Positions 15,101-31,358 of a stretch of DNA of 64,000 nt are shown here, piece after piece. This stretch comes from an uncultured Gammaproteobacteria bacterium (lineage in GTDB: Bacteria > Patescibacteriota > Patescibacteriia > Veblenbacterales > UBA10138), in assembly GCA_964348825.1 (NCBI GenBank), contig CAYGDX010000001.1, forward strand, positions 239,463 through 303,462. Direction: 5' to 3'. The notes under the pieces were generated by a model. The model saw only the letters and a list, made by a program, of their open reading frames with translations, searched no databases and was not told the origin of the DNA. The stretch's first letter is position 1. Every line of letters begins with the position of its first letter. The position numbers were made by a program, and so were the translations under genes.

Positions 15101-18100
15101 GATTTAGCTGTTAATCAATCAACTGCTTTTGCTTGGACTGGTCAACAATCTTGGACTGCTACAGTTACAGCCACTGGCGCTTTAGGAGATTTTAATCCGA
15201 CTTTGGGCAATGATACAGATGTTGATACAGTAGCCGGCATTCAAATTGATGCTACTTCAGCTGCCACTGGCGACGCTGATAATTTTTATGGTTTAAATAT
15301 TACTTTGGCTTCAGCCGATGCGACAGTCAATGAGCGAGCAATTGAAATTGGTTCAGGTTGGGATTCAGCTTTATCTGTTGGCGGCTCTTCAATTATTAAT
15401 GGTTCAGGTGTTTTACAATCCGCTGGACTTTCTGGTACTTATTCAAATGCCTTAACTTTATCATCAGCTACTAATTCTATTACCGCTGGCACTTTAATTG
15501 TGGGAGCGGATACTGTAACTGATTTAACTGGTACAGGACTTCAAGTAGTGGCCAATGCTTTGCAAGCTACTTTGGGTACAGATATTACTTCATCTGAAAT
15601 TGCTGATGATAGTATTATGAATGTAGATATTAATTCAGCGGCCGCAATTGCTTTTTCCAAATTAGCCGCGCTGACCTCCGGCAACATTTTAGTGGGCAAC
15701 GGTTCTAATGTAGCAACTAGTGTAGCGATGAGCGGTGATGTGTTAATTTCCAATGCGGGTTTAACAACTATCCAACCTGATGCAGTGGTTTTGGCGACTG
15801 ATACTTCAGGCAGTTATATTGCTACCATTGCCGGAAGCACTCAAGTTGGCGTATCTGGTTCAGGTTTAGAAAATGCGGCAGTATCACTCTCTATTAATAA
15901 TGATTCAATTGGCGATACTCAATTAGCTTTTGATACAGGTCAAACTTTAACTACTACCGCTACGCCACAGTTTGCGCGACTTGGTGTGGGGGTAGCGGCC
16001 GACGCAACTAATATTTTAACTGCCACTTCTACTTCAACTACTGATTTAAGTAAGGTCTTAAATATTTCTCACACTGGCGCCATTACTGGCACTGGTTATG
16101 CTAGTTATTTTTCTAAAACTGGGGCATCCACCACTAATGTTGGTTTATATTCAACTGCTTCGGGTGCTAGTAATAATTACGCCGCGGTTTTTGAGGCGGG
16201 CAATGTTGGTATTGGTGATACAACTCCCAGTTCAAAATTAGAAATTGGCGATGGCACAGATTCATTACAAATTTCAACAGTTGGTGATTTAACTTTTGTG
16301 GATGCTGACGGCGCGGCTTCAATTACTGGTCCAGCCGGCGGCGCTTTAACTATCGCTAGTGGCGCTTCGCAGGCTTTAACTTTAACTGGTAACGCCGCTT
16401 CTATTTGGGATATTGGTGCTAATGTTTTATCTTTGCAAACTACTAACAATGGTGCGATTACTACTGGCACTGGACTTTTAACTTCGGGTGGTAATATAAC
16501 TTTTTCTGGAACTTCTGCGCGCACAATCACTGGACCAAATACTGGCGCCGCCGCGGCCTTAACTTTAACTACCACTGGCAATGGTTCAGGATTAAAATTA
16601 ACTAGCGCGGCTGGGGCCTCTGGCAATTCAGGCGCCATTACTTTGCAAAGTGGTGATACTGCTACTTCCGGAACTTCAGGTGCTATCACAATTGATTCTG
16701 GTGCTGGTGTAACTGCGAATGGTGTGATTACTATTGGTACGACCAACGCACCAACTACTACAATTGGTGGTTGTACTTTTGATCGTGTGGCTGGCAGTAT
16801 GAGTTGTTCGGGAGCAGTTGGTGGTGGTACTGGTACACAAGGTTATTGGAATCGTAGTGGTACAACTTTAAGTCCAGCTACTGCTGGTGATTCTGTTTCA
16901 ACTTCCGGTGCAATTTCTACCACTGGTACTGGCGCTGTTACTTCAGCTGGTACTTTAACTGCTTCAGCCGATTTCACTGCCAATGGTAATGTTCAATTGG
17001 GTGACAACACGGCTGATACTTTAACGATTTATCCAACCGCTTGGACTGCCACGCCAACTATTTCCGGACTTATCACAGCTACTTCTGGAATAACGTCTAA
17101 TGGTACGGCGACTTTTAATACTAACACTAATTTTACTCTAGCTGGTGCTGAAAATGTTTCTCTCACTAACACTACCGCTTCGGCTGATCAATTATCACTC
17201 GCTGTTTCCGGTGTGACCACTGATGCAGTGGATGGTTTAGCTATTGCCTTTACCCAAGCTGACGATGCTGATGCCGCTGATACTAATGCCGCACTTAATA
17301 TTAGTTTAACTTCTTCTTCCACTGACGCTGATACTTTGTATGGTATCAACTTGTCTAACATCACAGCTGGTACAGCAAATGAATACGCCATCAATATTGG
17401 TACAGGTTATGATCGAGGTATTAACTTAGGCGCTAACTCAATTGTTGGTTCAACTGGTATTATTGATTACACTAATTTTGATGTTGATGCTTCTGGCAAT
17501 GTTACTGTTGCCGGCGACTTGGCTGTTAATGGTGGCAATGTTAACTTTGGTGCTACCACTACAATTGGTGATGGTGGCGATGCTTTAACTATTGATTCTA
17601 ATGGAACTTTAACTATTAGTGACGCTACTGTTACTGGTTCCGGCGCTTTAACAGTTACACCAGCTGCGGCGTCCGCTTTGACTTTAGGTACCACTGGTGT
17701 GGGCAACACTACTTCTATTACTTTAGCCACTGACTCAACTGGTGATGCTGAAGTGGTTTTGCCAACTGGTTCGGTTTCTGGTACAGAAATTTTAGATGAC
17801 ACAGTTGTCCTCACTACTGACACAGCTGGTGATTATGTGGCTTCAATTACCGCTGGCGGTGGTTTAACCGGTACAACTTCAGGTGAAGGTTCAACTCCAA
17901 CTCTGGCGGTTGGTGCTGGCACTGGTATTACAGTTAATGCTGATGACGTGGCAATCAATCAAGACACTTCTTTTACTTGGACTAATTCTCACGCCTTTAC
18001 TCTAGCTGGTGCTGAAAATGTTTCTCTCACTAACACTACCGCTTCGGCTGATCAATTATCACTCGCTGTTTCCGGTGTGACCACTGATGCAGTGGATGGT

Positions 18101-21100
18101 TTAGCTATTGCCTTTACCCAAGCTGACGATGCTGATGCCGCTGATACTAATGCCGCACTTAATATTAGTTTAACTTCTTCTTCCACTGACGCTGATACTT
18201 TGTATGGTATCAACTTGTCTAACATCACAGCTGGTACAGCAAATGAATACGCCATCAATATTGGTACAGGTTATGATCGAGGTATTAACTTAGGCGCTAA
18301 CTCAATTGTTGGTTCAACTGGTATTATTGATTACACTAATTTTGATGTTGATGCTTCTGGCAATGTTGATGCCTTAGGTACTCTTACCGCAGGTTCCGCA
18401 AATGAAGTACTTACTTTATCAACTGGCAAAATTGATGCTGACGCTATTACTTTAGCTGCCTCTGGTACTACTGGTTCTACTTCAAGTCGTTCTGGACTTC
18501 AAACTAGTTCTGACGGTTTAACGCTTTTAATGGGTTGTGCTGATGGCCAACTTTTGGAGTGGACTGATGCTAGTGGTTGGGCTTGTGCGGCAGACGATAC
18601 TGGTAGTAGTGGAGCTAGCGTGGAAGAAGGTGACAGTGCGGCTGTGGCGGCTTTATCTGTTCTTGATTTCTTAGCCGCAGATTTTGTAGTATCAGAAAGT
18701 CCAGCCAATGAAGCTAATGTGAGTATTGATTATCCAAATTCTGGCATTACCCGCAAAGCTCAAGCTGAAACAATTTCTGGTGGTTGGACATTTAATACTG
18801 CCGCCACTACTTTCACCACCGCCATAAATGCTAATGGTGGTATTACCACTACCACCGCTGATCAAAATTTAGCTTTTTCAGCTAATGGCGGCGGCGATTT
18901 TGTTTTCAATGTTGATAGCGGTACTTTTGTTTCTATTACTGGAACAGCTGACGGTGAAAGCGCCTTAACCATTGCGGCTGGCAACCTTACTCTAACCGAT
19001 GGCGACCTAGCTGTTTCCGCTGGCGATTTCAACGTCAATCTCGACGACGGCGACACAGTTAATATCGATGGCGATGCCACACCAACCGCTGATTTATTAA
19101 AACTTGGCAATGGTGATACCTCCGCGACTGATGATGTTGATGCTTTGCAAATTACTTTTGCTACGAGTGGTGCCTCAGGTAATTTAATTGATCTTAGTCC
19201 AACTTTTGCGGATTCTGATGCTGGAAACTCAGCCGAAACTTGGAATGCTGTTAATGTTAATGCTTTTACCGTCACCCAAAATGATTCAGGTGGTGCCATC
19301 ACTGGTGTAGTCAATGGTTTTAATTTAGGCAACCTCACAGAATCTCCAACTGGTGATGATGCTATTACTTCTACGGCAATTAAACTTGGAACAGGTTGGG
19401 ATTATATTTTTGATACAGCTGGGTTTGATGTGTTAGGCGCTACTGGTGCTACCACTATTACTGGTAGTGGTGATGGTACTGACGCTTTAACTTTAACTGC
19501 TGGTGATATTTTAGTTACTAATGGTGACCTTGATTTATCAGGTGGCGATTTTAATGTTATTTTGGATGCGGGTGATGGCGTGAACATTACTAAAGGTGCC
19601 GCGCCAACTGTTGATGTATTTTCAATCAATGGCTCAACTTCAACTACTGATGGTGTGGACGGTTTGCAATTAACATTTGGTGTTTCCGCCGCTTCCGGCA
19701 ATGTGATTGATATTACGCCAAGTTATACTGATGCCACAGCTGGTGCTACTTCAGAGACATACAACATTATTGACGTCGATGCTTTTACCGCCACCCAAAA
19801 TGCCACTGGTGACACTGGTTTAATAAATGGTTTAGCGATTGGTGCCTTAACTCAAACTGAAACCGCTGGCGCTTTAACGGCTTATGCTTTAAATATTGGT
19901 TCTGGTTGGGATAGTGTTTTGCGGGTGAATGGTACGGAAGTTGTTGACGCTTCTGGTAACGTGCCGGTAGCTAGAATTAATGGCACCCTCTTTACAGTTC
20001 AAGGTGACAATGCCGCTGGTCGCGCTATAACTCAAGGCAATACTTTAACTATTGCTGGTGGTACTAATTTAACTAGTGTAGATGCCGATACAGATACTGT
20101 TACTATCAACCTTGATGATTCAATTACTCTAGCTGGTGACCTAACAGTGCAAGGTCAGAATGTTAATTTTGATAATGCCACTGATATTGATATTGATGAT
20201 AACACTGCTTCGTCATTTACCATTTCTGAGGGCGCTAATAATTATTTCTTAATTACCACTACTAATGATAGTGAAGTAGTAACTTTAAATTTACCAGCTG
20301 GCGGCGCTACTTCTTTAACTGGCAATCTTTTTACTTCTGACATTGTAAAAACTATTAATATTGGTACTGGCACGGCGGCTGACACTATTAATTTAGGTAC
20401 TGGTACTACTAATCCTGATGCTATAAATATTGGCACTACTGATACTGTTGCTCATGTGATAAGAATTGGTGATAATACTGGTGCCTCTTCTTCTGACATA
20501 GCTATTGCTGACGCACAATGGAGTATAACTACCGCCGGTCTCATCACCACGGCCGATAATTTAGCGGTGAATGGTGGAGATATAACAACAACTGCCACTG
20601 ATCCAAATATTTTTAATACTGGTACAATATCTACTATAGATATTGGCGCTACCGTAACTGGCAACATTACTTTTTCTAATGGCTCTGGTTCTAGTGGTTG
20701 TACTATTGATGGTTCTGGTAACTTAGCTTGTGCAGGTACTATCACTGGTTCAACTTCTGGCGCGCAAGGTTATTGGACTCGTACTAGCACAACATTATCT
20801 CCTACCAACGCCGGCGATAGTATTGATATGCCTTCCGGTACTGGTGTATTTACCCAAACTTACGCTCCAGCCGGCACTACCGTGGCCGCTACTGGTGCGA
20901 CTTTTATTCCAACGTTTGGTGTGCACGCGGATAATCAGACTTTGGTTGGTGTAGCAATTAATCCAGTTACGAATTCCAATGATGACACTGGTGATATTTT
21001 AAATGCTTTAAGTATTGGCACTATCAATGCCACCTTGGCAAGTGAGCGCGCCATTTATATTGGCACGAGTTATGATACTGATTTAGTGTTTGGCGATACT

Positions 21101-24100
21101 ACACCAGTCGTAACTTTTGGTGATGGCGGCAACTTAACTTTCACCGATGGCACTAATACTTTACTCACTTTAACTGACGGTGGAACAGTTGGGAATTTAA
21201 GTGTCAGTGGCGACGTTACTACTACTGGCGATGTGGCGATAAATGGTGGCAATCTAAATTTTGGTGCGGCGACTACGATTGGTGATGGCGGCGATACAAT
21301 TGCTTTTAGTTTGAAAGATAATTCAGCTGATGCTTTAGATGTTCAACAAAGTACTAACAATTACATAAACATCAACACTTCTGATGGTAATGAAAATATT
21401 GCTCTTTCTACTTTACGTCAAACTGGTGGTGATGCTATTTCATTACTTGGTGATTCAATTACGACCGGTACAGCAGTTGGTGTTTCAGCTGATGTTATAA
21501 CCACTGGTGTGGCTTTAGATATTTCTTCAATTTCAACTGTGGCTAGTTCAGCCGATTTAATTCAAGTTGATCACACTGCGACTTATGTTACAACAGTTGC
21601 TAATTCCGGTAATTTACTTGATTTATCACGCGCTTTAACTACTAACACTGGTGGCGCTTTAACTAATAGTGGCGCAGTTGCTACTATCACTTCCAATTGT
21701 ACTCAAACCGCCGGTACTTGTACTGATACCGCAAACATTTTATCACTTACTCAAAGTTATGCTTCAGCTTCGGGAGCAGTTATTAAAACTTCCAATGCTG
21801 GTACGGGTGTTGATATTGAATTAGATAATGCCGAAACAATTGATAACTCTGTCAACGGTACAATCAATCTTGGCACCACAACTTTTAAACTTACTGGCGG
21901 TACCACCATTGTGTCTGATCAAGCTACAGTGGCTTTACTTGATTCTACCACCACCACTATTAATTTTGGTTCAGCCGCCACGGCTGTTAACTTAGCTGAT
22001 GCTGCTATCACTGGCACAATTGATATTGGCGGTGTGACAGCTGATGGCGCTTCAACTATTAATATTGCGACCAACTCTACTTCATCTGATACTTTAGTCA
22101 TTGGCAACTCTAACGCTTCTACTTTAGTTACTTTAACAGGTGGTGATGATTGGTCCATTTCTAATACTGGTGTACTTACATTAGATGGTACAACTTTAGA
22201 CATCAACTCACTTGATTTTGTTGGCGCTGGTACTTTTACTTCAGGTGCGGCAACTAATTTAACTTTAACTCCCGGTACCACTGGTGACTTAGTATTTTCG
22301 ACTGACGCTGATACCACTGCTACATTTTCTGGTTCAGCTGATGGCACAGCTAATGTTATTTTAACAGCTGGTGATTTAACTCTCACTGATGGCGATCTGG
22401 CTGTATCAGCTGGTGATTTCAATGTGACTTTAGATGCTGGTGATGGTGTGACGATTACTAAGAATGCAGTGCCAACGGTTGATATATTTACCATTTCCAA
22501 TACTGGGCAAGGTATCACTACCACTGATGGTGTAGATTCACTGGCTTTAACTTACGTACAAGCTACTAATGCCGCGGCAGTAGCTGGCTCTGCTTTAGAT
22601 ATTTCTGTTACTCAATCCGGTGATGCTTCGGATACGATTCGTGGTATTAATATCAATAATATTACTGGCGGTTCTTCTACCGAAACTGCTTTATCAATTG
22701 GTTCAGGTTGGGACACTGACTTAGCTTTTGTTGATACTTCACCAACTGTAACTATTGGTGGTGGTGGCACTATCACTTTCACTGATGGTACCAACACATT
22801 GTTTAGTATTGCTGATGCCGGTACAACTGGAAATGCTACAACGACTGGCAACTTAGCAGTTAGTGGTGGCGATATTACCACTGGCGCCGCAACGTTTAAT
22901 TTCGTGGCTGGAACAACCACTCTTAATTTAGCCGGCGGTTCTGGTTCCACTGGTTGTACGGTTGATGGTTCAGGCAACCTTACTTGTACTGGTGCAATTA
23001 CGGGTTCAGCTTCTGGTGCGCAAGGTTATTGGACTAGAACTGACAATATTTTAACTGCCACCAATGCCAATGATATTTTATCATTACCTTCTAATGACGC
23101 TGATTCACCAGTACTTAATTTGGCTTCTTCCGCTATCACTGCCAATGGCACAGCTTCTTTAAATCAAGCGGTGACAGTTAGTTCATCCGCCGCCGGTGTA
23201 ACAGCTTATGGTTATAAATTAGCTCTAACTAATAATCCATCTACCAATGCCAATACTTTATATGGTGAATATATTTCTTTTACTGATGCTGGATCGCTAG
23301 CTAATACTGTAACTGGACTTTATGTTGATGCCACCACTGCTAATGCTTCGGATACTACTTATTCAGGGGTTTTTACCGGTGGTAATTTTGGTATTGGTGA
23401 TACAAGTCCAGCTGCTTTATTAACAGTTGGTAGTGGTGATTTATTTCAAGTAGATTCTTCTGGTAATGTTACGGCTGTTGATTTAGCCGTGAATGGTGGA
23501 GATATTACTGGTGCTACCACTATGAACGTCTTTAACACTTCAACCACTATTAATTTAGCCGATGCCGCTATTACTGGCACGATTGATATTGGTGGTGTAT
23601 CAACTAATGGTACAACTACAGTTAATATTGCAACTGAAGGCACCTCAGCTGATGTTATTACAATTGGCAATTCTAATGCTTCCTCAACTGTTGCGATTAC
23701 TGGCGGCAATGACTGGTCAATTGCTGCTAATGGTAATTTTGTTACCTTAGGAACTTTAACTGCTGGCTCAGGTGCGGAAGTTATTACTTTGTCAACCGGT
23801 AAAATTGATGCCGATGCTATTAGTTTAATGACTGCTACGAATGGTGTTGGCACTACTTCAACTGCCTCGGGTTTGGAAGTAGTGAGTGACAAATTATCAT
23901 TATTGCAAGGTTGTACTGATGCTTATATTTTAAAGTGGGAAGAAGATACAGATACTTGGGATTGTGCGGCAGATGCCACTGGCGGTGGAGCAGGTAGTTT
24001 GCAAGGCGCTTATGATGGTACAAATACTATTACGACTTCAGATAATCGTGACATTGCTTTTACTTTGGCCGATACCAACTTAACCAACACCACGCCAGAT

Positions 24101-27100
24101 GCTAATGATTCTGATTTTACTGTGACTACTGCTTCAGGTAGTACCAGTGAAACAAAAATTATTTTAGCTGATGGTGTTGGTACAGTATCGCCAACAGAAT
24201 TGTTATTAATTAATAACGCGGATACTTCAGGCAATACTTTGGCTAATGGTATTACCGTTAGTTCCGCTGGTTCAGCCATCACCACAGGTATTAATTTAAC
24301 TGATGCGGATTTAGTAAATGCAATTAGTGTAGATGCCAATACTATTTTAGGCACCACTGGTGATATAAATTTTACAAATTTTGATGTTACAGGTTCAAGT
24401 GGTGATGTTGTAACCGGAGGTGATGTGGCAGTGAATGGTGGAGACATTACTGGCGCCACCACTATGAATGTTTTTAATACTTCAACCCTCATTAATTTAG
24501 CCGATTCCGCAATTACTGGCACGATTGATATTGGTGGGGTAACGGCCGATGGTGCAACTACCATTAATGTGGCCACTCATTCAACTTCAGCCGATGTAAT
24601 AACAATAGGTAATTCCAATGCTTCAACTACAGTGGCGATTACTGGTGGTGATGATTGGGCAATGGCCGCCACTGGTGTACTCACTATGTCAGCTTCCGCC
24701 GCCGCTACCACTGCGATAGTTATTACTGATACTGATTATACTAACGCTTTATCTATTGGTGATAATATTATTACCGGTACAACCTATAGTTTAGTTGGCA
24801 CATCGGCAACTATTGATTTTTCCGAATTTGATGTAGCCGCCGCTACCGGCGCTATTACTATCAACGATGATGGGGATGCTGGAAATATTTCTATTGAAGG
24901 CACGGTGCTGGATATTAACTCACTTGATTTTGTCGGCGCGGGCACTTTAACTTCCGCAGCGACTACGAATTTAACTTTTACTCCTGGTACCACTGGTGAT
25001 TTAGTATTTTCCACCGATGCTGACACCACCGCCACCTTTAGTGGTTCAGCTGAAGGTACAGCTAATGTTATTTTAACGGCTGGTGATTTAACTTTGACCG
25101 ATGGTGATTTAACATTATCAGGTGGTGAAATAGCTGCGACTTCAGATGATGCCACTGGTACAAATTTTAATTTTACTACTGGCGCATTAACTTCTGGTAC
25201 AGGTTTGGCAGTGGCCACCACTGGTGCTGTGGCTACGGCTTACACTGGCGATGTGATTAATGGTAGTTTTACACAGACCGTAACATCGGGTACGCCATTT
25301 AACAATACTGGCAATGTACTTGACATTTCTCGTGCTTTAACTATTAATCAAGCAGCCGGTGATACAGTCACACAAAGTGGTGCCCTAGTTAGTTTTACTT
25401 CAACTCTAGCGGCCGGTGGTGCGGGAGGTACTTTAGCTGATTCGTCAAATATTTTAGCTTTAGCTCAAAGTTGTGGCGGCGGTTTCTCTTGTACCGGCGC
25501 AGTATTAGGTATTACCAATGCTGGTACAGGTAGCGCTATTGCAATAGGTGCTATGTCAGCAAGTAGCGCCACTACCTCAGTCGCTAGTATTGATATTGGT
25601 GCTATTACTACAACCAACATAACTACTTCTACTGGTTTGAAAATTGGAGCTTTATCTGGTACGGGTACTACTGGTTATGGAATTGATATAGCTGGTATTA
25701 CAAAAACTGGTACTACAGCTACTGCTATTAACATTGGCGCTATGTCAGGCGCTGCCACTACTAACACTGGTATAGCAATTGGCAATCTATCAGCCGGTAC
25801 CACTTCTAATGGTATTACTATCGGAACTAATTCTTCAGCAACTTCAAAAGGTATCACTATCGGAGCAATGACTGGCGCCACTACTAACACTGGTATTGAT
25901 ATTGGCAACATTAGTACTGGTACCACTTCCAAAGGTATTAACATTGGGACTTTAGCTGGCATCAATGGCGGTACTGTCACTGGCATAGCTATCAGCACTA
26001 TGTCTGGTGCCGCTACCACCACTTCGGCTACTAGTATTGATATTGGTGCTATTACTACAACCAACATAACTACTTCTACTGGTTTGAAAATTGGAGCTTT
26101 ATCTGGTACGGGTACTACTGGTTATGGAATTGATATAGCTGGTATTACAAAAACTGGTACTACAGCTACTGCTATTAACATTGGCGCTATGTCAGGCGCT
26201 GCGACAACAAATACTGGGATCGCTATTGGAAATTTATCAGCTGGTACAACTTCCAAAGGTATTACTATTGGTACTAATTCTTCAGTTACCGCCACCGGTC
26301 TAGATATTGGTGCTTTATCTGGCACCACAGCTAATATTGGGGTGAAGGTGGGAGCTATTTCAGGAGCTAGTGGCACAGGAACAGGTCTTGATATTGGAGC
26401 TTTTACTAATACTGGCGCTACTCAATATGGAGTCAATATTGGAGCTTTTTCAGGAACACATGCGGCAGGAGGAGGAACCACTGCTGGAATTAATATTGGG
26501 AATATTTCTTCAGCAGGAACTACTTCATCAAATTATGGAATTCAATTAGGAACAATGACTGGTGGTACCACTGCAAATTATCAAATTAGTACTGGTATCT
26601 TAACTTCAGCTACCACCACAACTAATGCTCAAATTAATTTAGGTGGGGTGGTCACAACCGGTGGTACTACTAATTATGGTATCAATGTGGGGGCACTCTC
26701 TGGCACTGGTACCACTAACTATGGAATAAATGTTGCTGCATTGACATCTGTTGGAACTACAAATTATGGGTTAAATGTTGGTGGCGCGACTGGAGCGGCT
26801 ACTACTAATTATGGCGTGTTTGTTGGTGCAGTAACTGGAGCTTCCACCAATATTAGTTTGGCCTTTGCCAAAGAAAATGCACATACTATTAAAGTTTTAG
26901 ATAGTACAACTGCTGATACTGTAGGCGGTGCCTTAAGTATTACTGCTGGCGCCGCGGCAAATAGTACATCTACCGCTCGAGCTGGTGGGGCTATTACCCT
27001 AACAGCTGGAGCTGGTGCGGCAAATAGTAGCGCTACTACTGGTCAAACAGCCGGTGCGGGTGGAGCACTTAATATTAATACTGGAAATGGTGGTAATGAA

Positions 27101-29863
27101 ACTGGTAATGCAGCCGTTGTTTTAAATGGTGGTGCAGGTGGCGCAATAACAATTGATTTAGGTGACGGAGGATCACCATCTGGTTTAAGTACAGCTGGCT
27201 CAACTGGTAATGGTGGTGTTGGTGGGGCATGGTCATTAACTTCTGGTGCTGGTGGGGCTGTAACTAATGTTAGCAATCTTGTTCCAACTAGAAATGGCGG
27301 TGATAGCGGATCTATAAGTTTAATTACTGCTACTGGTGGTGAAACTAGTTGTTCTGCCTGTTCACCTAACTCAGCACAAACATTTATTGGTGGAGCCGCT
27401 GGGAATATTAATCTTACTGGTGGTACGGGTGGTGCGGCATTTATGTCTTCTGACGCCGGTGGAACACAATCATATACTGGTGGAGATGGCGCTACTATTA
27501 ATATAACAGCAGGAACTGGTGGAGCCGCATCTACTACTTCTGCAGATACAAATGTTGGTGGTGCAGGTGGAGCTCTTTCTTTTTCTGCTGGTGCTGGCGG
27601 AGCCGCTACAAATGGTACTGATACTGGTGGGGCGGGTGGCGACGTCACAATAAATGCCGGTGATGCAGGCAATGGTGATGGGAATGTTGACGGCGGAGAT
27701 GTCACTATTTATGGTGGCAATGCAGATGGCAGTGGTGTTGATGGAGATGTTATCCTTGCCTATACTGGTGCGGCTGTACAAGGAAATGTTGGTATTGGTA
27801 CTAGTACAACAACAATTCAAGCTACTGCAGGTTATGCAGGTCTCCATGTTAATGGATTAGTGAGAATTATAAATCCACAAGGTACAACTACCGCACCTAC
27901 TCTCGCTAACGAAGGTGAACACGCTTTTGCCACTGTTAGTGCTGTTGAACGTATGTATGTTTGGATTAATGGAGCTCGTAGATATTTTAACCGTACCGGT
28001 TCAGCTGACTTTTCAGAATTTGTTATAAAACAAGATGTTGTATCGTCTATTGTACCAGGTGATGTGGTTACTTATTTAGATTCTTCTACACCACGAGCTG
28101 GTATAATATTAGCAACTAACAATAATGGTGGGCGTGTGATGGGTGTGGTTTCAGCTGGTGGTACCCGTTATAATGATGATGAAGGTGAGGGTTTGCGTGG
28201 TGATGATCCAAATTACGCCAACGTTGGTATGCTTGGTCACGTGCCAGTGAAAGTCAATTTAGGAAATGGCCCGATTGTGCCAGGTGATTATTTGGTGCCA
28301 TCATCAACTGCTGGTGTGGCAATGAAATCGCCTAACGAAGCTGGGGTAATGATTGGTTTTGCTATGGAGAGTTACGATGGTAGCGATGCTGATGGTCAAA
28401 TTATGATGTTTGTAAGCCCTGGTTTCTATGATCCAAATGCTAATACATATTTCTCTAAATCTGGTGGTGAAGTATTAGGTAGTATGAAAGTTGTATCTTC
28501 TGGTACGCCGATGGAAATTAATTTAACTGGCTCCACCGATATAAATGCAGTGCGGAATATTTTTGAGGCGAAGTTAAATGGTGAAATGAAATTTCAGATT
28601 TTGGAGACGGGTGATGCAACATTATCTGGTAAGTTGAATGCGGGTTCACTCAAAACAATTGCGCAAGCCGAAATTGGTGGTGATTTGGAATTGTCTGGCG
28701 ATTTCAAAGTTGGTGGTTTAGTACGCTTGGATAGAAATGGTAATTTGAAAAATATTACATCTGTTCAGGTTGTCTCAAGCGTGAATGCGGATGGTAGTAT
28801 CACGCTTGGAACTATTCCATCGACATCAGTTGGTTCGTCTGTATCTATCGCGCAAACTTCCGCTGATCCTATTTCCGCTACACGCGCGGCGTTGGCTTTA
28901 TCTTCGGCTGGTACATCGGCATCTGATTATCTTATTTATTCAGAGCCATTCCAAGTTACTTATGATGGCCGGGTGAAGAGTAAGAGTTTGGAGGTTAAAG
29001 AAAGTGTGTTAGTTGGTGGTGATAATGTTACTTCAGGTAATTTGATTTCGGGTAAAGTAGGGGATAGTTTTAGTGGATTGCTCGTGAAGTTTACAAACAG
29101 TTCAGGTAAATCATTATTCTCAATTGATGGCAGTGGGTTACTGGTGGTGGATGCAGTTAAAACTCGCGCGATTGTGATTGATAATACTGACCAGCCGCGC
29201 GCCACAATTGGTAGTGCGGTGGTACCAGCACAAAGTTTGGTGATCACAGTGACTGCGCCTGAAGTGCGACCTGGTATGAAAATTTTCATCACACCTAAAA
29301 TTGCTATTTCACAATCACTGGCTGTAACAAATATTGAGCAGGGGAGTTTCACAGTTTCCTTGGCTCATCGTTCGGCTTCGGATGTGCCATTTGATTGGTG
29401 GTTGGTTGACGTGACTAATCCATCATTTACAGCTTCATCACAAGTAGTTGATTCTGGTAATGGTGGAAATAGTAATGAGCAGGGGAATGGAGGCAATAGT
29501 GTGTTGCCAACAGATAACACCCAACCGACAACCAACAACACTGTTGAGCCAGTAGCAAGTAATGAGCCAGTAGTTGATTCAACTCAACCAGTGGCGAGTG
29601 GTACGCCAGTTGCGCCAACTACAGTTCAGCCAACTGCTAGTGTTGAGCCAACCTCAACTGAATCACAGCCCGTTGCTTCTACTACCACCGAACCAGCGCC
29701 AACCACTGCTCCCATCACCGTTACCGATTCAACCCCAGTCGCTTCGGTCAGCACACCAAGCGCACCAGAACCAACCCCAAATTCAACTTCAACCACTACT
29801 ACCACCACCGAACCAATTGTAAACAACACTCCCACTGTCCAAGCCAGCATAGTAGCGGAATAA
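12158..29863 (+). CDS. Giant (5,901 aa) repetitive surface protein, built from an N-terminal cytoplasmic excisionase-type HTH (about aa 20-75), a K/E/P/V-rich linker, one TM helix (about aa 212-232), about 5,500 aa of Thr/Gly/Ala/Ser/Asn-rich tail-fibre-like repeats, and a C-terminal Pro/Thr/Ser-rich low-complexity tail
   Basis: A single 17,706-nt open frame. The HTH segment LISLAEAAKLTPYSQEYISLLARRGKLLAWKKGRNWCTTREAVQSYL matches the HTH_17 pattern. The TM segment is HWFYLALFLIAVPVIIFSLT. Recurring unit-ending motifs are AI-x-IGSGWD/AINIGTGYD, LTLTDGDLAVSAGDFNV and LNADAIDG..SEQF. About 16-aa IG/SG solenoid-like repeats occur at aa 4450-4800, Gly-rich GGAGG repeats at aa 4960-5200, and GNVGIGTSTT..LHVNG near the C-terminus. 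Confidence 0.85.
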   Translation: MNPVEPGSVVKSTSQDNLISTPSDQELISLAEAAKLTPYSQEYISLLARRGKLLAWKKGRNWCTTREAVQSYLDKQTKDAAEKLERHQVVLESSKPEIKEVKPGIILSPEQLLPVAEIKVATPIVSEIKVSPEIKPEVPVVIPVEKVATAESSAVLAAREIANVLGETLGARFDSIKQELKQVNEQVSRSVPAYATPVPSAVVVKQNKIKSHWFYLALFLIAVPVIIFSLTQGLAEDAPGKLLASLKNAWTLDGHRAGTEANEVLILNEAGNISIKGHIETQGQLRSYARDGIAPIVVDSTTKIEKLNADAIDGYSSEQFNLAFITKQGNVTSDDVYLKGKVEVGQILEVKGATKLLDELLVGGGLGVWGKSFFHNDVAVDGKVDVSKSLAVKKDITAGGNVVAQNKVVAEKGLETGGDIVTNNNDIFLGSGTIIKEGKELIKNLNAEYWNGQAASDFNLDMITDNGAVTDNQITVGGINSTGTSRFTGRTELLGETVIGNLESLTVNGKTNLRNTDVSGTLAVAGHGLFSSLGVAGSAGVINLSSKEFSTTNASIGGSSSNTLAVAASSTFSGPISASNSVSLTSATPAISTSAGDLVLQSKGATTTANVQIGVGGDGSTTPDLLVLDVKSDATDPTGTDGAMYYNTSTDKFRCYENAAWTDCVGAGGGGGSTLQAAYVSGNTISTTTDDGDLAVTLADTTTDRNFTVTIADGATGTVSISRADGAGTSDPSQLLLLDNLDTNRSIADGLKIQSAAGLIVDGIDVSDAELTNALNVGDNIIAGTTAEINFSNFDLATSGNIQVAAGVGLDTNGAGSLTLGVSNATTIDIAGGSSSTGCTITNATGSLVCSGINSTPVGATSPSTGAFTTLSSTGATTLGNNSSTVAVDTTSWDISSAGAISGLTGLTVASGTVSLPNGQIDNSELANSTITFAGDTGSSTTALGATRTIAGGGGLTSADNSSGTLTLAVGAGTGITVNADDLAVNQSTAFAWTGQQSWTATVTATGALGDFNPTLGNDTDVDTVAGIQIDATSAATGDADNFYGLNITLASADATVNERAIEIGSGWDSALSVGGSSIINGSGVLQSAGLSGTYSNALTLSSATNSITAGTLIVGADTVTDLTGTGLQVVANALQATLGTDITSSEIADDSIMNVDINSAAAIAFSKLAALTSGNILVGNGSNVATSVAMSGDVLISNAGLTTIQPDAVVLATDTSGSYIATIAGSTQVGVSGSGLENAAVSLSINNDSIGDTQLAFDTGQTLTTTATPQFARLGVGVAADATNILTATSTSTTDLSKVLNISHTGAITGTGYASYFSKTGASTTNVGLYSTASGASNNYAAVFEAGNVGIGDTTPSSKLEIGDGTDSLQISTVGDLTFVDADGAASITGPAGGALTIASGASQALTLTGNAASIWDIGANVLSLQTTNNGAITTGTGLLTSGGNITFSGTSARTITGPNTGAAAALTLTTTGNGSGLKLTSAAGASGNSGAITLQSGDTATSGTSGAITIDSGAGVTANGVITIGTTNAPTTTIGGCTFDRVAGSMSCSGAVGGGTGTQGYWNRSGTTLSPATAGDSVSTSGAISTTGTGAVTSAGTLTASADFTANGNVQLGDNTADTLTIYPTAWTATPTISGLITATSGITSNGTATFNTNTNFTLAGAENVSLTNTTASADQLSLAVSGVTTDAVDGLAIAFTQADDADAADTNAALNISLTSSSTDADTLYGINLSNITAGTANEYAINIGTGYDRGINLGANSIVGSTGIIDYTNFDVDASGNVTVAGDLAVNGGNVNFGATTTIGDGGDALTIDSNGTLTISDATVTGSGALTVTPAAASALTLGTTGVGNTTSITLATDSTGDAEVVLPTGSVSGTEILDDTVVLTTDTAGDYVASITAGGGLTGTTSGEGSTPTLAVGAGTGITVNADDVAINQDTSFTWTNSHAFTLAGAENVSLTNTTASADQLSLAVSGVTTDAVDGLAIAFTQADDADAADTNAALNISLTSSSTDADTLYGINLSNITAGTANEYAINIGTGYDRGINLGANSIVGSTGIIDYTNFDVDASGNVDALGTLTAGSANEVLTLSTGKIDADAITLAASGTTGSTSSRSGLQTSSDGLTLLMGCADGQLLEWTDASGWACAADDTGSSGASVEEGDSAAVAALSVLDFLAADFVVSESPANEANVSIDYPNSGITRKAQAETISGGWTFNTAATTFTTAINANGGITTTTADQNLAFSANGGGDFVFNVDSGTFVSITGTADGESALTIAAGNLTLTDGDLAVSAGDFNVNLDDGDTVNIDGDATPTADLLKLGNGDTSATDDVDALQITFATSGASGNLIDLSPTFADSDAGNSAETWNAVNVNAFTVTQNDSGGAITGVVNGFNLGNLTESPTGDDAITSTAIKLGTGWDYIFDTAGFDVLGATGATTITGSGDGTDALTLTAGDILVTNGDLDLSGGDFNVILDAGDGVNITKGAAPTVDVFSINGSTSTTDGVDGLQLTFGVSAASGNVIDITPSYTDATAGATSETYNIIDVDAFTATQNATGDTGLINGLAIGALTQTETAGALTAYALNIGSGWDSVLRVNGTEVVDASGNVPVARINGTLFTVQGDNAAGRAITQGNTLTIAGGTNLTSVDADTDTVTINLDDSITLAGDLTVQGQNVNFDNATDIDIDDNTASSFTISEGANNYFLITTTNDSEVVTLNLPAGGATSLTGNLFTSDIVKTINIGTGTAADTINLGTGTTNPDAINIGTTDTVAHVIRIGDNTGASSSDIAIADAQWSITTAGLITTADNLAVNGGDITTTATDPNIFNTGTISTIDIGATVTGNITFSNGSGSSGCTIDGSGNLACAGTITGSTSGAQGYWTRTSTTLSPTNAGDSIDMPSGTGVFTQTYAPAGTTVAATGATFIPTFGVHADNQTLVGVAINPVTNSNDDTGDILNALSIGTINATLASERAIYIGTSYDTDLVFGDTTPVVTFGDGGNLTFTDGTNTLLTLTDGGTVGNLSVSGDVTTTGDVAINGGNLNFGAATTIGDGGDTIAFSLKDNSADALDVQQSTNNYININTSDGNENIALSTLRQTGGDAISLLGDSITTGTAVGVSADVITTGVALDISSISTVASSADLIQVDHTATYVTTVANSGNLLDLSRALTTNTGGALTNSGAVATITSNCTQTAGTCTDTANILSLTQSYASASGAVIKTSNAGTGVDIELDNAETIDNSVNGTINLGTTTFKLTGGTTIVSDQATVALLDSTTTTINFGSAATAVNLADAAITGTIDIGGVTADGASTINIATNSTSSDTLVIGNSNASTLVTLTGGDDWSISNTGVLTLDGTTLDINSLDFVGAGTFTSGAATNLTLTPGTTGDLVFSTDADTTATFSGSADGTANVILTAGDLTLTDGDLAVSAGDFNVTLDAGDGVTITKNAVPTVDIFTISNTGQGITTTDGVDSLALTYVQATNAAAVAGSALDISVTQSGDASDTIRGININNITGGSSTETALSIGSGWDTDLAFVDTSPTVTIGGGGTITFTDGTNTLFSIADAGTTGNATTTGNLAVSGGDITTGAATFNFVAGTTTLNLAGGSGSTGCTVDGSGNLTCTGAITGSASGAQGYWTRTDNILTATNANDILSLPSNDADSPVLNLASSAITANGTASLNQAVTVSSSAAGVTAYGYKLALTNNPSTNANTLYGEYISFTDAGSLANTVTGLYVDATTANASDTTYSGVFTGGNFGIGDTSPAALLTVGSGDLFQVDSSGNVTAVDLAVNGGDITGATTMNVFNTSTTINLADAAITGTIDIGGVSTNGTTTVNIATEGTSADVITIGNSNASSTVAITGGNDWSIAANGNFVTLGTLTAGSGAEVITLSTGKIDADAISLMTATNGVGTTSTASGLEVVSDKLSLLQGCTDAYILKWEEDTDTWDCAADATGGGAGSLQGAYDGTNTITTSDNRDIAFTLADTNLTNTTPDANDSDFTVTTASGSTSETKIILADGVGTVSPTELLLINNADTSGNTLANGITVSSAGSAITTGINLTDADLVNAISVDANTILGTTGDINFTNFDVTGSSGDVVTGGDVAVNGGDITGATTMNVFNTSTLINLADSAITGTIDIGGVTADGATTINVATHSTSADVITIGNSNASTTVAITGGDDWAMAATGVLTMSASAAATTAIVITDTDYTNALSIGDNIITGTTYSLVGTSATIDFSEFDVAAATGAITINDDGDAGNISIEGTVLDINSLDFVGAGTLTSAATTNLTFTPGTTGDLVFSTDADTTATFSGSAEGTANVILTAGDLTLTDGDLTLSGGEIAATSDDATGTNFNFTTGALTSGTGLAVATTGAVATAYTGDVINGSFTQTVTSGTPFNNTGNVLDISRALTINQAAGDTVTQSGALVSFTSTLAAGGAGGTLADSSNILALAQSCGGGFSCTGAVLGITNAGTGSAIAIGAMSASSATTSVASIDIGAITTTNITTSTGLKIGALSGTGTTGYGIDIAGITKTGTTATAINIGAMSGAATTNTGIAIGNLSAGTTSNGITIGTNSSATSKGITIGAMTGATTNTGIDIGNISTGTTSKGINIGTLAGINGGTVTGIAISTMSGAATTTSATSIDIGAITTTNITTSTGLKIGALSGTGTTGYGIDIAGITKTGTTATAINIGAMSGAATTNTGIAIGNLSAGTTSKGITIGTNSSVTATGLDIGALSGTTANIGVKVGAISGASGTGTGLDIGAFTNTGATQYGVNIGAFSGTHAAGGGTTAGINIGNISSAGTTSSNYGIQLGTMTGGTTANYQISTGILTSATTTTNAQINLGGVVTTGGTTNYGINVGALSGTGTTNYGINVAALTSVGTTNYGLNVGGATGAATTNYGVFVGAVTGASTNISLAFAKENAHTIKVLDSTTADTVGGALSITAGAAANSTSTARAGGAITLTAGAGAANSSATTGQTAGAGGALNINTGNGGNETGNAAVVLNGGAGGAITIDLGDGGSPSGLSTAGSTGNGGVGGAWSLTSGAGGAVTNVSNLVPTRNGGDSGSISLITATGGETSCSACSPNSAQTFIGGAAGNINLTGGTGGAAFMSSDAGGTQSYTGGDGATINITAGTGGAASTTSADTNVGGAGGALSFSAGAGGAATNGTDTGGAGGDVTINAGDAGNGDGNVDGGDVTIYGGNADGSGVDGDVILAYTGAAVQGNVGIGTSTTTIQATAGYAGLHVNGLVRIINPQGTTTAPTLANEGEHAFATVSAVERMYVWINGARRYFNRTGSADFSEFVIKQDVVSSIVPGDVVTYLDSSTPRAGIILATNNNGGRVMGVVSAGGTRYNDDEGEGLRGDDPNYANVGMLGHVPVKVNLGNGPIVPGDYLVPSSTAGVAMKSPNEAGVMIGFAMESYDGSDADGQIMMFVSPGFYDPNANTYFSKSGGEVLGSMKVVSSGTPMEINLTGSTDINAVRNIFEAKLNGEMKFQILETGDATLSGKLNAGSLKTIAQAEIGGDLELSGDFKVGGLVRLDRNGNLKNITSVQVVSSVNADGSITLGTIPSTSVGSSVSIAQTSADPISATRAALALSSAGTSASDYLIYSEPFQVTYDGRVKSKSLEVKESVLVGGDNVTSGNLISGKVGDSFSGLLVKFTNSSGKSLFSIDGSGLLVVDAVKTRAIVIDNTDQPRATIGSAVVPAQSLVITVTAPEVRPGMKIFITPKIAISQSLAVTNIEQGSFTVSLAHRSASDVPFDWWLVDVTNPSFTASSQVVDSGNGGNSNEQGNGGNSVLPTDNTQPTTNNTVEPVASNEPVVDSTQPVASGTPVAPTTVQPTASVEPTSTESQPVASTTTEPAPTTAPITVTDSTPVASVSTPSAPEPTPNSTSTTTTTTEPIVNNTPTVQASIVAE
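17132..17503 (+). repeat. Intragenic direct repeat copy A (372 bp, apparently nucleotide-identical to 17996..18367; 864-bp period)
   Basis: The protein segment FTLAGAENVSLTNT...FDVDASGNV is duplicated exactly. The antisense ORFs 17188..17394 and 18052..18258 translate identically. Confidence 0.85.
17996..18367 (+). repeat. Intragenic direct repeat copy B
   Basis: See copy A. Confidence 0.85.
25586..25757 (+). repeat. Intragenic direct repeat (about 172 bp identical, then diverging; 447-bp period), copy A
   Basis: AGTATTGATATTGGTGCTATTACTACAACCAACATAACTACT...GCTATGTCAGGCGCTGC recurs at 26033. Confidence 0.8.
26033..26204 (+). repeat. Intragenic direct repeat, copy B
   Basis: See copy A. Confidence 0.8.
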
Positions 29864-29902
29864 ATTTTTGTTACAATTTTTATATTTATATACAATTTTA
29901 AT

Positions 29903-29944
29903 TCCGTCGTCACAAATGTCCGGCCGGACATTTGTGACGACGGA
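29903..29944. promoter_or_regulatory. Perfect 42-bp palindrome TCCGTCGTCACAAATGTCCGG|CCGGACATTTGTGACGACGGA between the giant ORF stop and the PaaX-like gene start
   Basis: Read directly. There is no loop and no T-tract. It may be an operator or a bidirectional terminator. Confidence 0.6.
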
Positions 29945-29966
29945 GTAATTAGATTATAATATAACT

Positions 29967-30509
29967 ATGATTAAAAAGAATGAATCAGTAACTCACTTCG
30001 TGTTAAAGTCGTTGGCTGTGGTTGGCAGTATCACAGTAGATTTTTATACTTGGACGAATGATTTACGACGTTGGCAGTACCATTATGAAAGTAATCGTGA
30101 GTGGAAAAATTATTTAAAATATATTAAGGATAAAAATAGATCACGTAAATTATTACATAATTTAAAAAGAAGAAATTATATTAAGATTAATAAAATAGGT
30201 AACAGGGTTATAATTAGTTTAACTGATAAAGGTAAAATGGCAGCACTTAAAAATAGTTTATTACAAACTAAAAAGATGTCAGATAAATATACTGTAGTAA
30301 TTTTTGATATTCCCGAAACAGCACGCTTAGCCAGAGTATTATTTAGAAAATTATTAAAAGAAGCTAGCTTTAAAAAATTACAACAAAGCGTGTGGATATC
30401 AAATTGTGATGCCCATGATATCATGATTAAATTTATTAAAGAGCAAAAAATAGATAAATGGGTTAACGTATTTTATGCTACCGATTTGTTCAAGAAGTTG
30501 AATTTGTAA
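29967..30509 (+). CDS. PaaX-family-like small regulator (N-terminal wHTH-like region plus a C-terminal Cas2-fold/PaaX_C-like segment)
   Basis: The C-terminal YTVVIFDIPETARLARVLFRKLLKEASFKKLQQSVWIS fits the Cas2/PaaX_C pattern (YDIPE...R..L.K.L...GF..LQ.SVW). Length 180 aa, Lys-rich. Confidence 0.5.
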   Translation: MIKKNESVTHFVLKSLAVVGSITVDFYTWTNDLRRWQYHYESNREWKNYLKYIKDKNRSRKLLHNLKRRNYIKINKIGNRVIISLTDKGKMAALKNSLLQTKKMSDKYTVVIFDIPETARLARVLFRKLLKEASFKKLQQSVWISNCDAHDIMIKFIKEQKIDKWVNVFYATDLFKKLNL

Positions 30510-30520
30510 TCGTTATCTAA

Positions 30521-30547
30521 TTATATCCGGCCGGACATTTATAGAGA
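30521..30547. repeat. Partial copy of the right half of the 29903..29944 palindrome (ATCCGGCCGGACATTTATAGAGACGGA) just after the PaaX-like stop
   Basis: About 22 of 27 positions match. With the full palindrome it flanks the 543-bp gene. Confidence 0.55.
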
Positions 30548-30596
30548 CGGAGATGATAATTGTTTTTTTAATTAAAATGTTGTGGATAGGTGGGTG

Positions 30597-30624
30597 TTGA
30601 CAGGTTTTTATAGTTTGGTATACT
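30597..30624 (+). promoter_or_regulatory. Sigma70-type promoter of the rplJ-rplL operon (TTGACA-16-TATACT)
   Basis: TTGACA at 30597..30602 and TATACT at 30619..30624. Confidence 0.65.
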
Positions 30625-30833
30625 AGTTTTACAACTTAAATCGCCACAGACAGTAGGTGTCCCATGTTCATCGGACTTAAGCTCAAAAAGGCCTGCCGAG
30701 GTAAGTAGTCAAGAGTCATAATTTTTGACTGATAGCTTATTATCTGTGGGTTAACCACAGTTTTTTTATTTAGAATTCGGTTGCTTTAGCAACCACCCAC
30801 CAAATCGGCGGGTAAAAGCGGGACTTTTATTTT
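30625..30833 (+). promoter_or_regulatory. rplJ 5' leader (candidate L10(L12)4 autoregulatory leader) with an internal hairpin plus U-run
   Basis: About 200-nt structured UTR. CTGTGGGTTAACCACAG is followed by TTTTTTTATTT. A GGTTGCTTTAGCAACC hairpin lies just before the RBS region. Confidence 0.45.
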
Positions 30834-31358
30834 ATGGCTAAATCAAAACAAGCAAAAGGTGAATTATTGAATAGTTTAACTAGTTTACTTAAAAAAGCTA
30901 AATCGTTGGTATTTGCTGATTATACAGGTTTGACAATGAAAGATATGCAGGAGTTGCGTCGAGCAATGAGAGCTCGGGGCGTAGAATATGAAGTAACTAA
31001 AAAAACTTTACTTCGCAAATCACTTGAATCAGCTAATATAACTTCGGTCGATGTGGATAGTTTACAAGGCATGGTCAGTGTGGCCGTAAGCGATAGTGAT
31101 GAAATAGAGCCAGCCAAGCAAGTGGTAGAATTTGCTAAAACTCATGACAAATTTAAATTACTTGGCGGTTTCATTGCCGGAGATTTTTATGGGGCTAGTC
31201 AAGTATCAGAATTAGCTAAATTACCAAGTAAAGATGTATTGCTGGCTAGAGCAGTTGGCGCAATTAAATCACCATTATCTGGATTTGTATCGGTGCTTAA
31301 AGGTAATTTGCGTGGGTTGGTACAGGTACTTTCAGCAATTAGTTCTGAAAAAAAATAA
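30834..31358 (+). CDS. rplJ: 50S ribosomal protein L10
   Basis: 174 aa with typical L10 N-terminal region, followed by rplL. Confidence 0.9.
   Translation: MAKSKQAKGELLNSLTSLLKKAKSLVFADYTGLTMKDMQELRRAMRARGVEYEVTKKTLLRKSLESANITSVDVDSLQGMVSVAVSDSDEIEPAKQVVEFAKTHDKFKLLGGFIAGDFYGASQVSELAKLPSKDVLLARAVGAIKSPLSGFVSVLKGNLRGLVQVLSAISSEKK

Follow-up and report, generated by a model that had tools for sequence, protein, structure and literature searches.

Introduction

The closest described counterpart of the locus analyzed here is PaaX, the phenylacetyl-CoA-responsive repressor of Escherichia coli and Pseudomonas (PDB 8a39 and 3l09), in which an N-terminal winged helix is followed by a PaaX_M domain and a phenylacetyl-CoA effector domain, PaaX_C. 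The E. coli operator is an inverted repeat of 39 bp, TGATTC-N27-GAATCA, and PaaX represses its own promoter, Px, by steric hindrance (PMC9493321). Here we describe a gene for a 180-aa protein (29967..30509, + strand) that lies between a perfect 42-bp palindrome, U (29903..29944), and an eroded second palindrome, D (30510..30551), neither assigned to a strand. The three elements are found in a 64,000-nt stretch of DNA, hereafter the window, from an uncultured bacterium placed in the Patescibacteriota (assembly GCA_964348825.1, contig CAYGDX010000001.1, positions 239,463 to 303,462). We propose with moderate confidence, on comparative grounds, that U, D and their counterparts in related genomes are the cognate binding sites of the 180-aa protein, acting as a dimeric PaaX-like autoregulator.

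The protein shares with PaaX the order of winged helix and PaaX_M domain, and the 42-bp palindrome, to which binding is predicted, is close in length to the PaaX operator of about 39 bp. The differences are considerable. PaaX has about 316 residues against 180 here, and its effector domain is absent from our protein; the neighbors of the gene are a giant protein gene, rplJ and rplL, with no paa gene adjoining (the whole window was not scanned for paa). The sites described here form unbroken palindromes, perfect in most cases, around a conserved GC core, whereas the PaaX operator consists of two hexamers with unconstrained DNA between them. Unlike PaaX, the family has sites on both sides of the gene and is multi-copy in the genomes of the candidate phyla radiation (CPR, Patescibacteria).

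Two further systems invite comparison. In REPtrons, genes for REP-associated tyrosine transposases (RAYTs) are flanked by repetitive extragenic palindromes (REPs). The present family resembles them in that the gene is bracketed by palindrome copies (15 of 30 loci), that the palindromes come in paralog-specific variants and that solo copies occur near gene ends. It differs in having no HUH/Y1 transposase domain and, in the DNA examined, a very low copy number, and its palindromes are perfect and loop-less, while REPs are imperfect and carry bulges. AspA, a winged-helix centromere-binding protein of the Sulfolobus plasmid pNOB8 (PDB 5k1y), binds a palindromic site upstream of its own operon. It is the best PDB profile match of our N-terminal domain, at a marginal E value of 9e-4, but has no Cas2-like domain, and there are no parA or parB neighbors here.

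CPR bacteria have tiny genomes with few recognizable regulators. Members of the present family are currently annotated as hypothetical proteins, as PaaX or, wrongly, as Cas2, and in the searchable literature, which leaves most subscription journals outside, we found no description of the family or its palindromes. Readable, lineage-specific candidate sites would provide a handle for regulon prediction in uncultured bacteria and would help to correct a recurrent mis-annotation. The family may also serve as a compact natural model of a PaaX-type dimer reading a site of about 40 bp, and as a test case for what maintains long perfect palindromes, selection for structure or templated mutation.

Results

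The palindromes on either side of the gene

U consists of two 21-nt arms, TCCGTCGTCACAAATGTCCGG and CCGGACATTTGTGACGACGGA, which are 100% complementary and meet without a loop, at exactly the position and with exactly the sequence reported in a preliminary description of the window. It begins 40 nt past the stop codon of a giant open reading frame (ORF) and ends 22 nt ahead of the ATG of the 180-aa gene. Each arm can be divided into a core (ATGTCCGG·CCGGACAT, the dot marking the center of symmetry here and below), an A/T spacer and a distal box, CGTCGTCAC; the central core reads TGTCCGG·CCGGACA. With up to three mismatches allowed, the arm sequence has a single location in the 64 kb and no match in shuffled sequences, and the 16-nt core ATGTCCGGCCGGACAT is found at two places, U and the downstream copy, where 0.04 would be expected. 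A search for further copies, which had been suggested as a check, returned only U and D in the window. U was not called in a scan of the window for intrinsic terminators, having neither a loop nor a T tail, which agrees with the earlier remark that it is unlike a standard terminator.

A promoter-like site, TTGTGA-17 nt-TATAAT (29932..29960, + strand), matches the consensus at 10 of 12 positions, a consensus match being all that is claimed for it. Its −35-like hexamer lies within the right arm of U. Its −10-like hexamer ends 6 nt before the ATG, so that a transcript made from it would be leaderless or have a very short leader; no Shine-Dalgarno sequence is present within 10 nt of that ATG. The AT-rich spacer holds other promoter-like matches as well, of which one (29868-29896) would start transcription at the first base of U.

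Behind the gene, a half-copy of U had been reported at 30521-30547. A diverged copy does exist there, but the string in question, ATCCGGCCGGACATTTATAGAGACGGA, is located at 30525-30551, 4 nt further on, and D is neither a half-copy nor a designed half-site but what erosion has left of a second full palindrome. This reading is taken because the well-preserved right arm, CCGGACATTTATAGAGACGGA (30531-30551), is preceded by a degenerate left arm, TCGTTATCTAATTATATCCGG (30510-30530), complementary to it at 14 of 21 positions by our own count. A repeat finder matches 30523-30552 to 29916-29945 at 83% identity, and the conserved core of D starts 14 nt past the stop codon (30507-30509). As RNA, D folds no better than shuffled sequences (z +0.47). 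At the orthologous position in the closest other genome (locus L001) there is a palindrome with 19-nt arms and one mismatch, and equivalents of U are present at ortholog and paralog loci alike. The core of D is ATATCCGG·CCGGACAT, and its one-sided A/G difference (TATCC vs GGACA) is identical to that of the L001 ortholog and is seen again at L019 and L027; that the window and L001 have it in common argues against very fast homogenization of the arms.

A winged helix joined to a Cas2-like domain

The 180-aa protein has an N-terminal winged helix (about residues 1-100), whose recognition helix is predicted at 56-68 and whose β-hairpin wing lies at 72-85, and a C-terminal Cas2-like ferredoxin-fold domain of the PaaX_M type (residues 103-172). 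Pfam assigns the latter to PaaX_M (PF20803) with 51.1 bits against a cutoff of 24 (E 1.4e-13), residues 103-172 aligning to profile positions 3-72 of 83, and residues 59-93 to a winged helix-turn-helix (wHTH) model (PF22665; 28.2 bits, cutoff 27). Neither the Pfam model of the PaaX N-terminus nor PaaX_C is among the Pfam matches; the chain ends at residue 180, where the effector domain of PaaX would start. The C-terminus had been credited with a Cas2/PaaX_C signature, of which the Cas2-like fold, as PaaX_M, stands and the PaaX_C domain does not. Among NCBIfam models, TIGR01573 (Cas2) scores 26.1 bits against a cutoff of 24.5 with only positions 1-49 of 96 covered, and TIGR02277 (PaaX) scores 19.5 bits against a cutoff of 264.55. 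PADLOC Cas2 models match at E values of about 1e-6.

An AlphaFold model built with 22 homologs (predicted local distance difference test score, pLDDT, 78) consists of an N-terminal winged helix and a C-terminal β-α-β-β-α-β domain. Foldseek searches of the PDB with this model return E. coli PaaX (8a39) as the top hit, followed by many Cas2 chains aligned to the C-terminal domain, among them 8q2n, 5zyf and 5xvo (probability 1.0, rmsd about 3.5 Å over about 80 residues), so that the proposed PaaX/Cas2 fold is upheld by Pfam, by TIGR01573 above its cutoff and by structural comparison. In a sequence-profile search of the PDB, residues ~25-105 resembled, though weakly, AspA and winged helices of the MarR/ArsR type. 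Among the invariant residues are D114, P116, R123, R127, Q139, S141 and W143, D114 being invariant in 22 aligned sequences; with Cas2 the C-terminal domain has in common the ferredoxin-like fold, the Asp of a "FDIP" motif on β1 and a "QxSVW" motif. Pfam, NCBIfam and Foldseek found only the wHTH and PaaX_M/Cas2 domains in the protein, with no HUH Y1 transposase fold and no recombinase domain. Judging from the model and the profiles, the protein is a "mini-PaaX", that is, a winged helix with a Cas2-like domain of the dimerization type and no ligand-binding PaaX_C; it is neither PaaX proper nor Cas2.

Palindromes recur beside the gene across the CPR

Homologs come from metagenome-assembled genomes (MAGs) of Patescibacteria, a few of the records being labeled "Gammaproteobacteria" or plain "bacterium". 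More than 558 loci were matched among GTDB species representatives, often with three to five copies per genome, and a search of 1.84 billion representatives gave 4555 clusters, at 50% identity, with E ≤ 1e-10, nearly all of 160-200 aa. No relatives of the protein were found on viral contigs, and a phage origin of the gene was rejected on this basis.

The association was counted at 30 non-redundant loci of close homologs, scoring palindromes of the family type within 250 bp of the gene. A long palindrome lies upstream at 19 of these loci and downstream at 24; palindromes stand on both sides at 15 and on one side or more at 28. They are 30-52 bp long and for the most part perfect, their arms measuring 14-26 nt. 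In the approximately 525 kb of surrounding DNA there are only some 33 other perfect palindromes with arms of at least 10 nt, nearly all of them stem-loops of unrelated sequence; extras of the family type number two to three. In L001 the order of giant gene, family gene and rplJ is kept. A paralog in the same genome (L004) has a different context, and each of the two genes has palindromes on both sides with a common core, TATGTCCGG·CCGGACATA, and dissimilar outer arms. An Rfam match of the downstream palindrome of L004 to MIR6274 was discarded as a meaningless hairpin match.

Elsewhere the upstream site is shorter. At L023, L029, L030, L035 and L044 it is reduced to a core of 14-18 bp located 8-95 bp before the start codon, and distant members of the Daviesbacteria type have ordinary imperfect palindromes 0-30 bp before it. 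Long upstream palindromes are found in divergent intergenic regions too. The downstream site lies between convergent genes at about 20 of 33 loci, a placement that does not suit a promoter operator.

A metagenome scan for long palindromes with the family core and at least 700 bp of flanking DNA returned about 30 sites. About 14 of them adjoin a family gene, and 16 are solo, with no family gene in the locus. The solo sites are found beside topA, uvrC, murC, tig and TrmB-type genes; 12 lie between tandem genes, 4 between convergent genes and none between divergent genes, and 10 of the 12 tandem sites are nearer the end of the upstream gene, although this strand context is weak evidence in genomes as strongly co-directional as those of the CPR. 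The gene family makes up far less than 1% of a genome yet accounts for about half of the metagenome sites, so the association stays very strong. The concern that the palindrome might be a dispersed repeat unrelated to the gene is therefore justified only in part: about half of the metagenome sites are solo, but the palindrome is tied to the gene at 28 of 30 loci and its core tracks the protein subclade.

Paralogs lie beside gyrA (three loci), ftsH, genes for surface proteins and other genes. At L015, L025 and L027 gyrA is convergent with the family gene, and topA stands beside solo sites at L177, L197 and L198. That gyrA and topA recur next to palindromes could be coincidental, or it could point to a connection with DNA supercoiling.

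Many metagenome contigs (L089, L091, L096, L104, L141, L162, L188, L193, L195 and L205) end within about 50 nt of a perfect palindrome. Such ends are probably due to breakage of the assembly graph at self-reverse-complementary k-mers, so that MAGs may contain too few of these sites and of the genes beside them.

Cores follow the protein and arms remain symmetrical

The core changes with the subclade of the neighboring protein. The clade to which the window protein belongs has TGTCC(G/A)G·, and subclades of the Daviesbacteria type have TGTACGA·TCGTACA, TTCAACGA·, TGACGA·TCGTCA or GTCCGA·TCGGAC; at the syntenic locus L208, whose protein is 41% identical to ours, it has changed to ATGCG·GT·CGCA. 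In a Mantel-type test, pairwise protein distance correlated with core distance (rho 0.43-0.52), a level reached in 0 of 300 permutations. Both domains track the core over this range, the relation of the winged helix to the distal boxes is weak (rho 0.19), and the spacer tracks neither domain. The change of the core with protein clade, the sites reduced to a core and the imperfect palindromes of distant members together have the look of cognate binding sites.

The span was assessed on 105 metagenomic sites chosen, without bias, on their central 20 nt only. Pairing of the arms reaches 18-19 nt from the center (overall 56-66%, and 71-86% where a family gene adjoins) and falls beyond this to a background of 25-30%, which implies a site of 36-38 bp. 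Mismatches in the arms show no G.U bias, with 8 G.T and 11 A.C on the sense strand.

Outside the core the arms vary freely but symmetrically. Arm positions 11-18 use all four pair types, and the A/T tract next to the core, which sits within the stem, occurs in either orientation. Where the two palindromes of one locus differ, the differences are almost always mirrored on both arms (5/5 at L004, 2/2 at L014, 4/4 at L015, 3/3 at L020 and 2/2 at L028), including a change from AAAA to TTTT at L015 and a symmetric 1-nt indel at L004. Quasi-palindrome template switching is a process in which one arm templates the other. We attribute the symmetry either to such arm-to-arm templating or to selection for self-complementarity itself, the capacity to form a hairpin or cruciform being needed in addition.

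Discussion

Proposed binding sites of a PaaX-like autoregulator

Of the explanations considered here, the operator idea is the best supported, and the comparative data extend it from one locus to a family. From the fold, the repeated and specific association of gene and palindrome, the change of core with clade, the span and the promoter-like overlap, all of which are observed, we infer dimerization, binding and repression, as well as a role for the downstream and solo sites. A dimer held together by its Cas2-like domains, which would form the dimerization core as in PaaX, would bind the palindrome of about 40 bp. Such a symmetric dimer would cover a duplex of some 36-42 bp, as long as the E. 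coli PaaX operator, and would read the conserved GC core in the middle of the site, with the A/T spacers and lineage-specific distal boxes placed in the outer arms. The E. coli case lends substance to the statement in the preliminary description that PaaX-type repressors use long palindromic operators, since the operator there is a long inverted repeat and PaaX represses its own promoter. Because U overlaps the −35 hexamer and spacer of the putative promoter of the gene, a bound dimer would exclude RNA polymerase and bring about negative autoregulation, as PaaX does at Px. D, whose counterparts are intact in relatives, would be a second site for the same protein; most likely it would serve as a protein roadblock or insulator at the 3′ terminus of a gene whose neighbors often run antiparallel to it, or as a partner in DNA looping. 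The suggestion of an autoregulatory operator pair is supported by the tie between palindrome and gene, by the core that tracks the protein and by the promoter-like overlap upstream, but the downstream member, which usually lies between convergent genes, is not a promoter operator.

Several observations weigh against this proposal. The downstream site is more constant than the upstream one (24 against 19 of 30 loci), and about 20 of 33 loci have it flanked by two 3′ ends, a place in which an operator does not act. About half of the long core palindromes in metagenomes are solo, and most of these have a 3′ end nearer to them than the next start codon. In AT-rich DNA, matches to promoters carry little weight; 8 were found where shuffled sequences gave 4.9 ± 2.3. 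A correlation of the Mantel type can reflect shared descent rather than direct readout, and contact with a protein does not by itself require symmetry at freely variable arm positions. Three features accordingly go beyond a textbook autoregulator: the gene has a site on each side, solo sites occur close to gene ends, and the arms keep strict symmetry at positions that vary. If the protein is only an autoregulator, the finding is useful but ordinary; there is a modest chance that a hidden structure-specific system stands behind the family.

A possible structure-specific or mobile unit

The first alternative, which we regard as unlikely, is that the protein recognizes hairpins or cruciforms, possibly nicking them through its Cas2-like domain, and that the gene and its two palindromes form a selfish or recombining unit, REPtron-like or cassette-like. 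As the flanks are both direct and inverted repeats, such a unit could invert or excise by recombination, and solo palindromes could be left behind or seeded elsewhere. The bracketed gene does parallel the RAYT genes between their REPs, and at unconstrained positions the covariation of the arms is perfect, down to symmetric indels and A/T flips. The family is multi-copy in small genomes, with paralog-specific arms; solo palindromes are about as numerous as gene-linked ones; the gene abuts the 3′ end of the giant gene in either orientation in different lineages; and the Asp of the Cas2 motif, D114, is invariant. Transfer-messenger RNA (tmRNA) genes are classical integration hotspots, and the palindrome of the L004 paralog (paralog B) lies about 270 bp downstream of a partial tmRNA match within a 900-bp intergenic region. 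This match (L004 4585-4654, RF00023) has 32.5 bits, below the gathering score of 47, with an E value of 7e-11, and ARAGORN finds no tmRNA there.

Against mobility stand the absence of a recombinase or HUH domain and the low copy number, with no other copies in the 64 kb and only the two to three family-type extras in about 525 kb. Ancient paralogs with diverged arms coexist in one genome, and P0004, a paralog in the window genome, is 83% identical to P0003 across genomes, which speaks against recent transposition. The paralogs L001 and L004 are 84% identical, the orthologs of the window and L001 78%. The one-sided A/G difference in the core of D, conserved between the window and L001, likewise argues against rapid homogenization of the arms.

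The preliminary description had also raised the possibility that the palindromes bound a small inserted regulatory cassette, to which the following observations lend no direct support. The 180-aa gene has a GC content of 0.27, and its GC content at third codon positions (GC3) of 0.249 is inside the genome range of 0.17-0.41, so that the low GC can be put down to amino-acid composition; a recent horizontal insertion of the gene was rejected on this ground. Two relatives, L207 and L208, have ribosomal protein L10 sequences 61-62% identical to that of the window. At that distance L208 (61%) keeps the family locus in synteny, while L207, which lacks it, has an SLT gene there instead, with neither a solo palindrome nor an excision scar. 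L210 has neither the giant gene nor the family gene beside rplJ, and L209 is cut off. The comparison of empty sites through rplJ synteny thus gave no excision scar, with no close relative available for it.

In its fullest form this alternative would make the wHTH-Cas2-like proteins and their covarying palindromes a previously unrecognized, CPR-wide system of hairpin or cruciform recognition, in which the protein would bind extruded palindromes and perhaps, by means of its Cas2-like domain with the invariant Asp, cut them or assist in resolving them, the unit could flip or excise through recombination of its flanks, and solo sites at gene ends would be dispersed targets or scars. We consider this rather improbable. 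If true, it would amount to a REPtron-like arrangement in which a Cas2-fold protein takes the place of the HUH transposase, and might bear on how Cas2 first became associated with palindromic CRISPR repeats.

The Cas2-like C-terminal halves of two paralog lineages are near-identical in protein sequence within and between genomes, while their winged-helix halves differ, and the paralogs L001 and L004 of one genome resemble each other more closely than the window protein resembles its L001 ortholog. This suggests either gene conversion or very strong constraint on the C-terminal domain.

RNA hairpins, a true Cas2 and chance as disfavored explanations

A further alternative, to which we give a low probability, is that the palindromes act independently of the protein as RNA terminators or mRNA-stabilizing stem-loops at gene ends, the link with the family being only a matter of local gene-end architecture; U would then serve the giant gene, and D the regulator gene. 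U is indeed the sole hairpin behind the giant ORF and would fold very stably as RNA (−37.4 kcal/mol, z −9.4 against shuffles), the downstream and solo sites favor 3′ ends, as in the strand counts given above, and at L010, L016 and L028 the layout of A and T tracts mimics a bidirectional terminator. A terminator, however, would not keep the sequence of its tip across CPR classes, nor change it with the subclade of the neighboring protein. The T tract is on the wrong side (TTTTTGTCC...GGACAAAAA) in L017, D of L020, L025, L029, L030 and L034, and the arms show no tolerance of wobble pairs. Long upstream palindromes occur in divergent regions, where there is nothing to terminate, and other genes in the 525 kb do without such palindromes. 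Ordinary terminators, moreover, are in use: a GC hairpin with a T run follows the SLT gene of L207, and the window has one at 30744-30760. On the variable orientation of the T tract, the lack of G.U bias, the class-wide core and the ordinary terminators of relatives, we rejected the RNA terminator or stabilizer as the main explanation.

That the protein is a genuine CRISPR-associated Cas2, or the palindrome a functionless product of chance, is extremely improbable and excluded for practical purposes: the TIGR01573 score just above its cutoff, the PADLOC matches and the name "CRISPR-associated endonuclease Cas2" that NCBI gives to P0011 and P0014 speak for a Cas2, but only the first half of the model is matched, PaaX_M matches better, the domain forms part of a wHTH fusion, cas1 is absent and the neighbors are a giant protein and rplJ rather than cas genes, while chance is contradicted by the empty shuffles and by palindromes recurring in dozens of loci. 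No CRISPR-like array of spaced direct repeats was found in the 64 kb, as had been stated before, and the gene tables of L001-L006 and L208 hold no cas genes; the earlier view that a Cas2 role is unlikely is thereby confirmed. The naming of P0011 and P0014 looks like systematic mis-annotation, probably caused by a TIGR01573 score just above the cutoff in spite of the wHTH fusion.

Genomic context

The giant ORF (12158..29863, + strand; 5901 aa) borders U with its 3′ end and counts as context, not as a demonstrable part of the unit. Its conserved C-terminal region of about 480 aa is 47-64% identical to C-terminal regions at L010, L014, L016, L207 and L208, and Pfam found no domain in its last 953 aa. 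In six lineages (the window, L001, L208, L010, L014 and L016) the family gene and a palindrome directly adjoin the 3′ end of a homologous gene for a giant or large protein, co-directionally in the first three and convergently in the others. Such a recurrence goes beyond coincidence, yet it may reflect synteny inherited within one paralog lineage, since other paralogs adjoin gyrA, ftsH and other genes, and for the same reason the tie to the giant gene that had been suspected, though seen in six lineages, is not general. The comparison of relatives that had been recommended shows giant gene, palindrome and regulator kept together in L001, and the order giant gene, PaaX_M gene and rplJ in L208.

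Downstream of D, a strong sigma-70-like promoter match, TTGACA-16-TATACT (30597-30624, + strand; 11 of 12 positions, TG before the −10), precedes a ribosomal protein L10 leader (30626-30777, + strand; Rfam RF00557, 51.9 bits against a gathering score of 44), behind which lie rplJ (30834-31358, + strand) and then rplL. This promoter region begins at least 46 nt beyond D and is outside the palindrome unit. In the window, rplJL is separate from rplKA, its usual company; upstream of the operon lie the giant gene and the regulator gene.

One metagenome contig, L096, carries two identical 22-bp perfect palindromes, GTTATGTCCGGCCGGACATAAC (36-55 and 1328-1347), that contain the core and bound a 1.3-kb segment in which both strands carry alternative tail-fiber-like C-termini (…SSVSVPAAYALIIIKA). 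The region resembles an invertible phage tail-fiber segment of the shufflon type whose crossover sites happen to match the CPR core; the contig has 54% GC, and the case was set aside as unrelated to the family. Near family genes of two Kerfeldbacteria genomes there is a second, unrelated palindrome family with the core CCCGATGTACATCGGG (L018 3459-3478; L030 2483-2514). The giant ORF of the window itself contains long internal near-duplications; the stretch "FTLAGAENVSLTNTTASADQLSLAVSGVTTDAVDGLAIAFTQADDADAADTNAALNISLTSSSTDADTLYGINLSNITAGTANEYAINIGTGYDRGINLGANSIVGSTGIIDYTNFDVDASGNV", for example, occurs twice.

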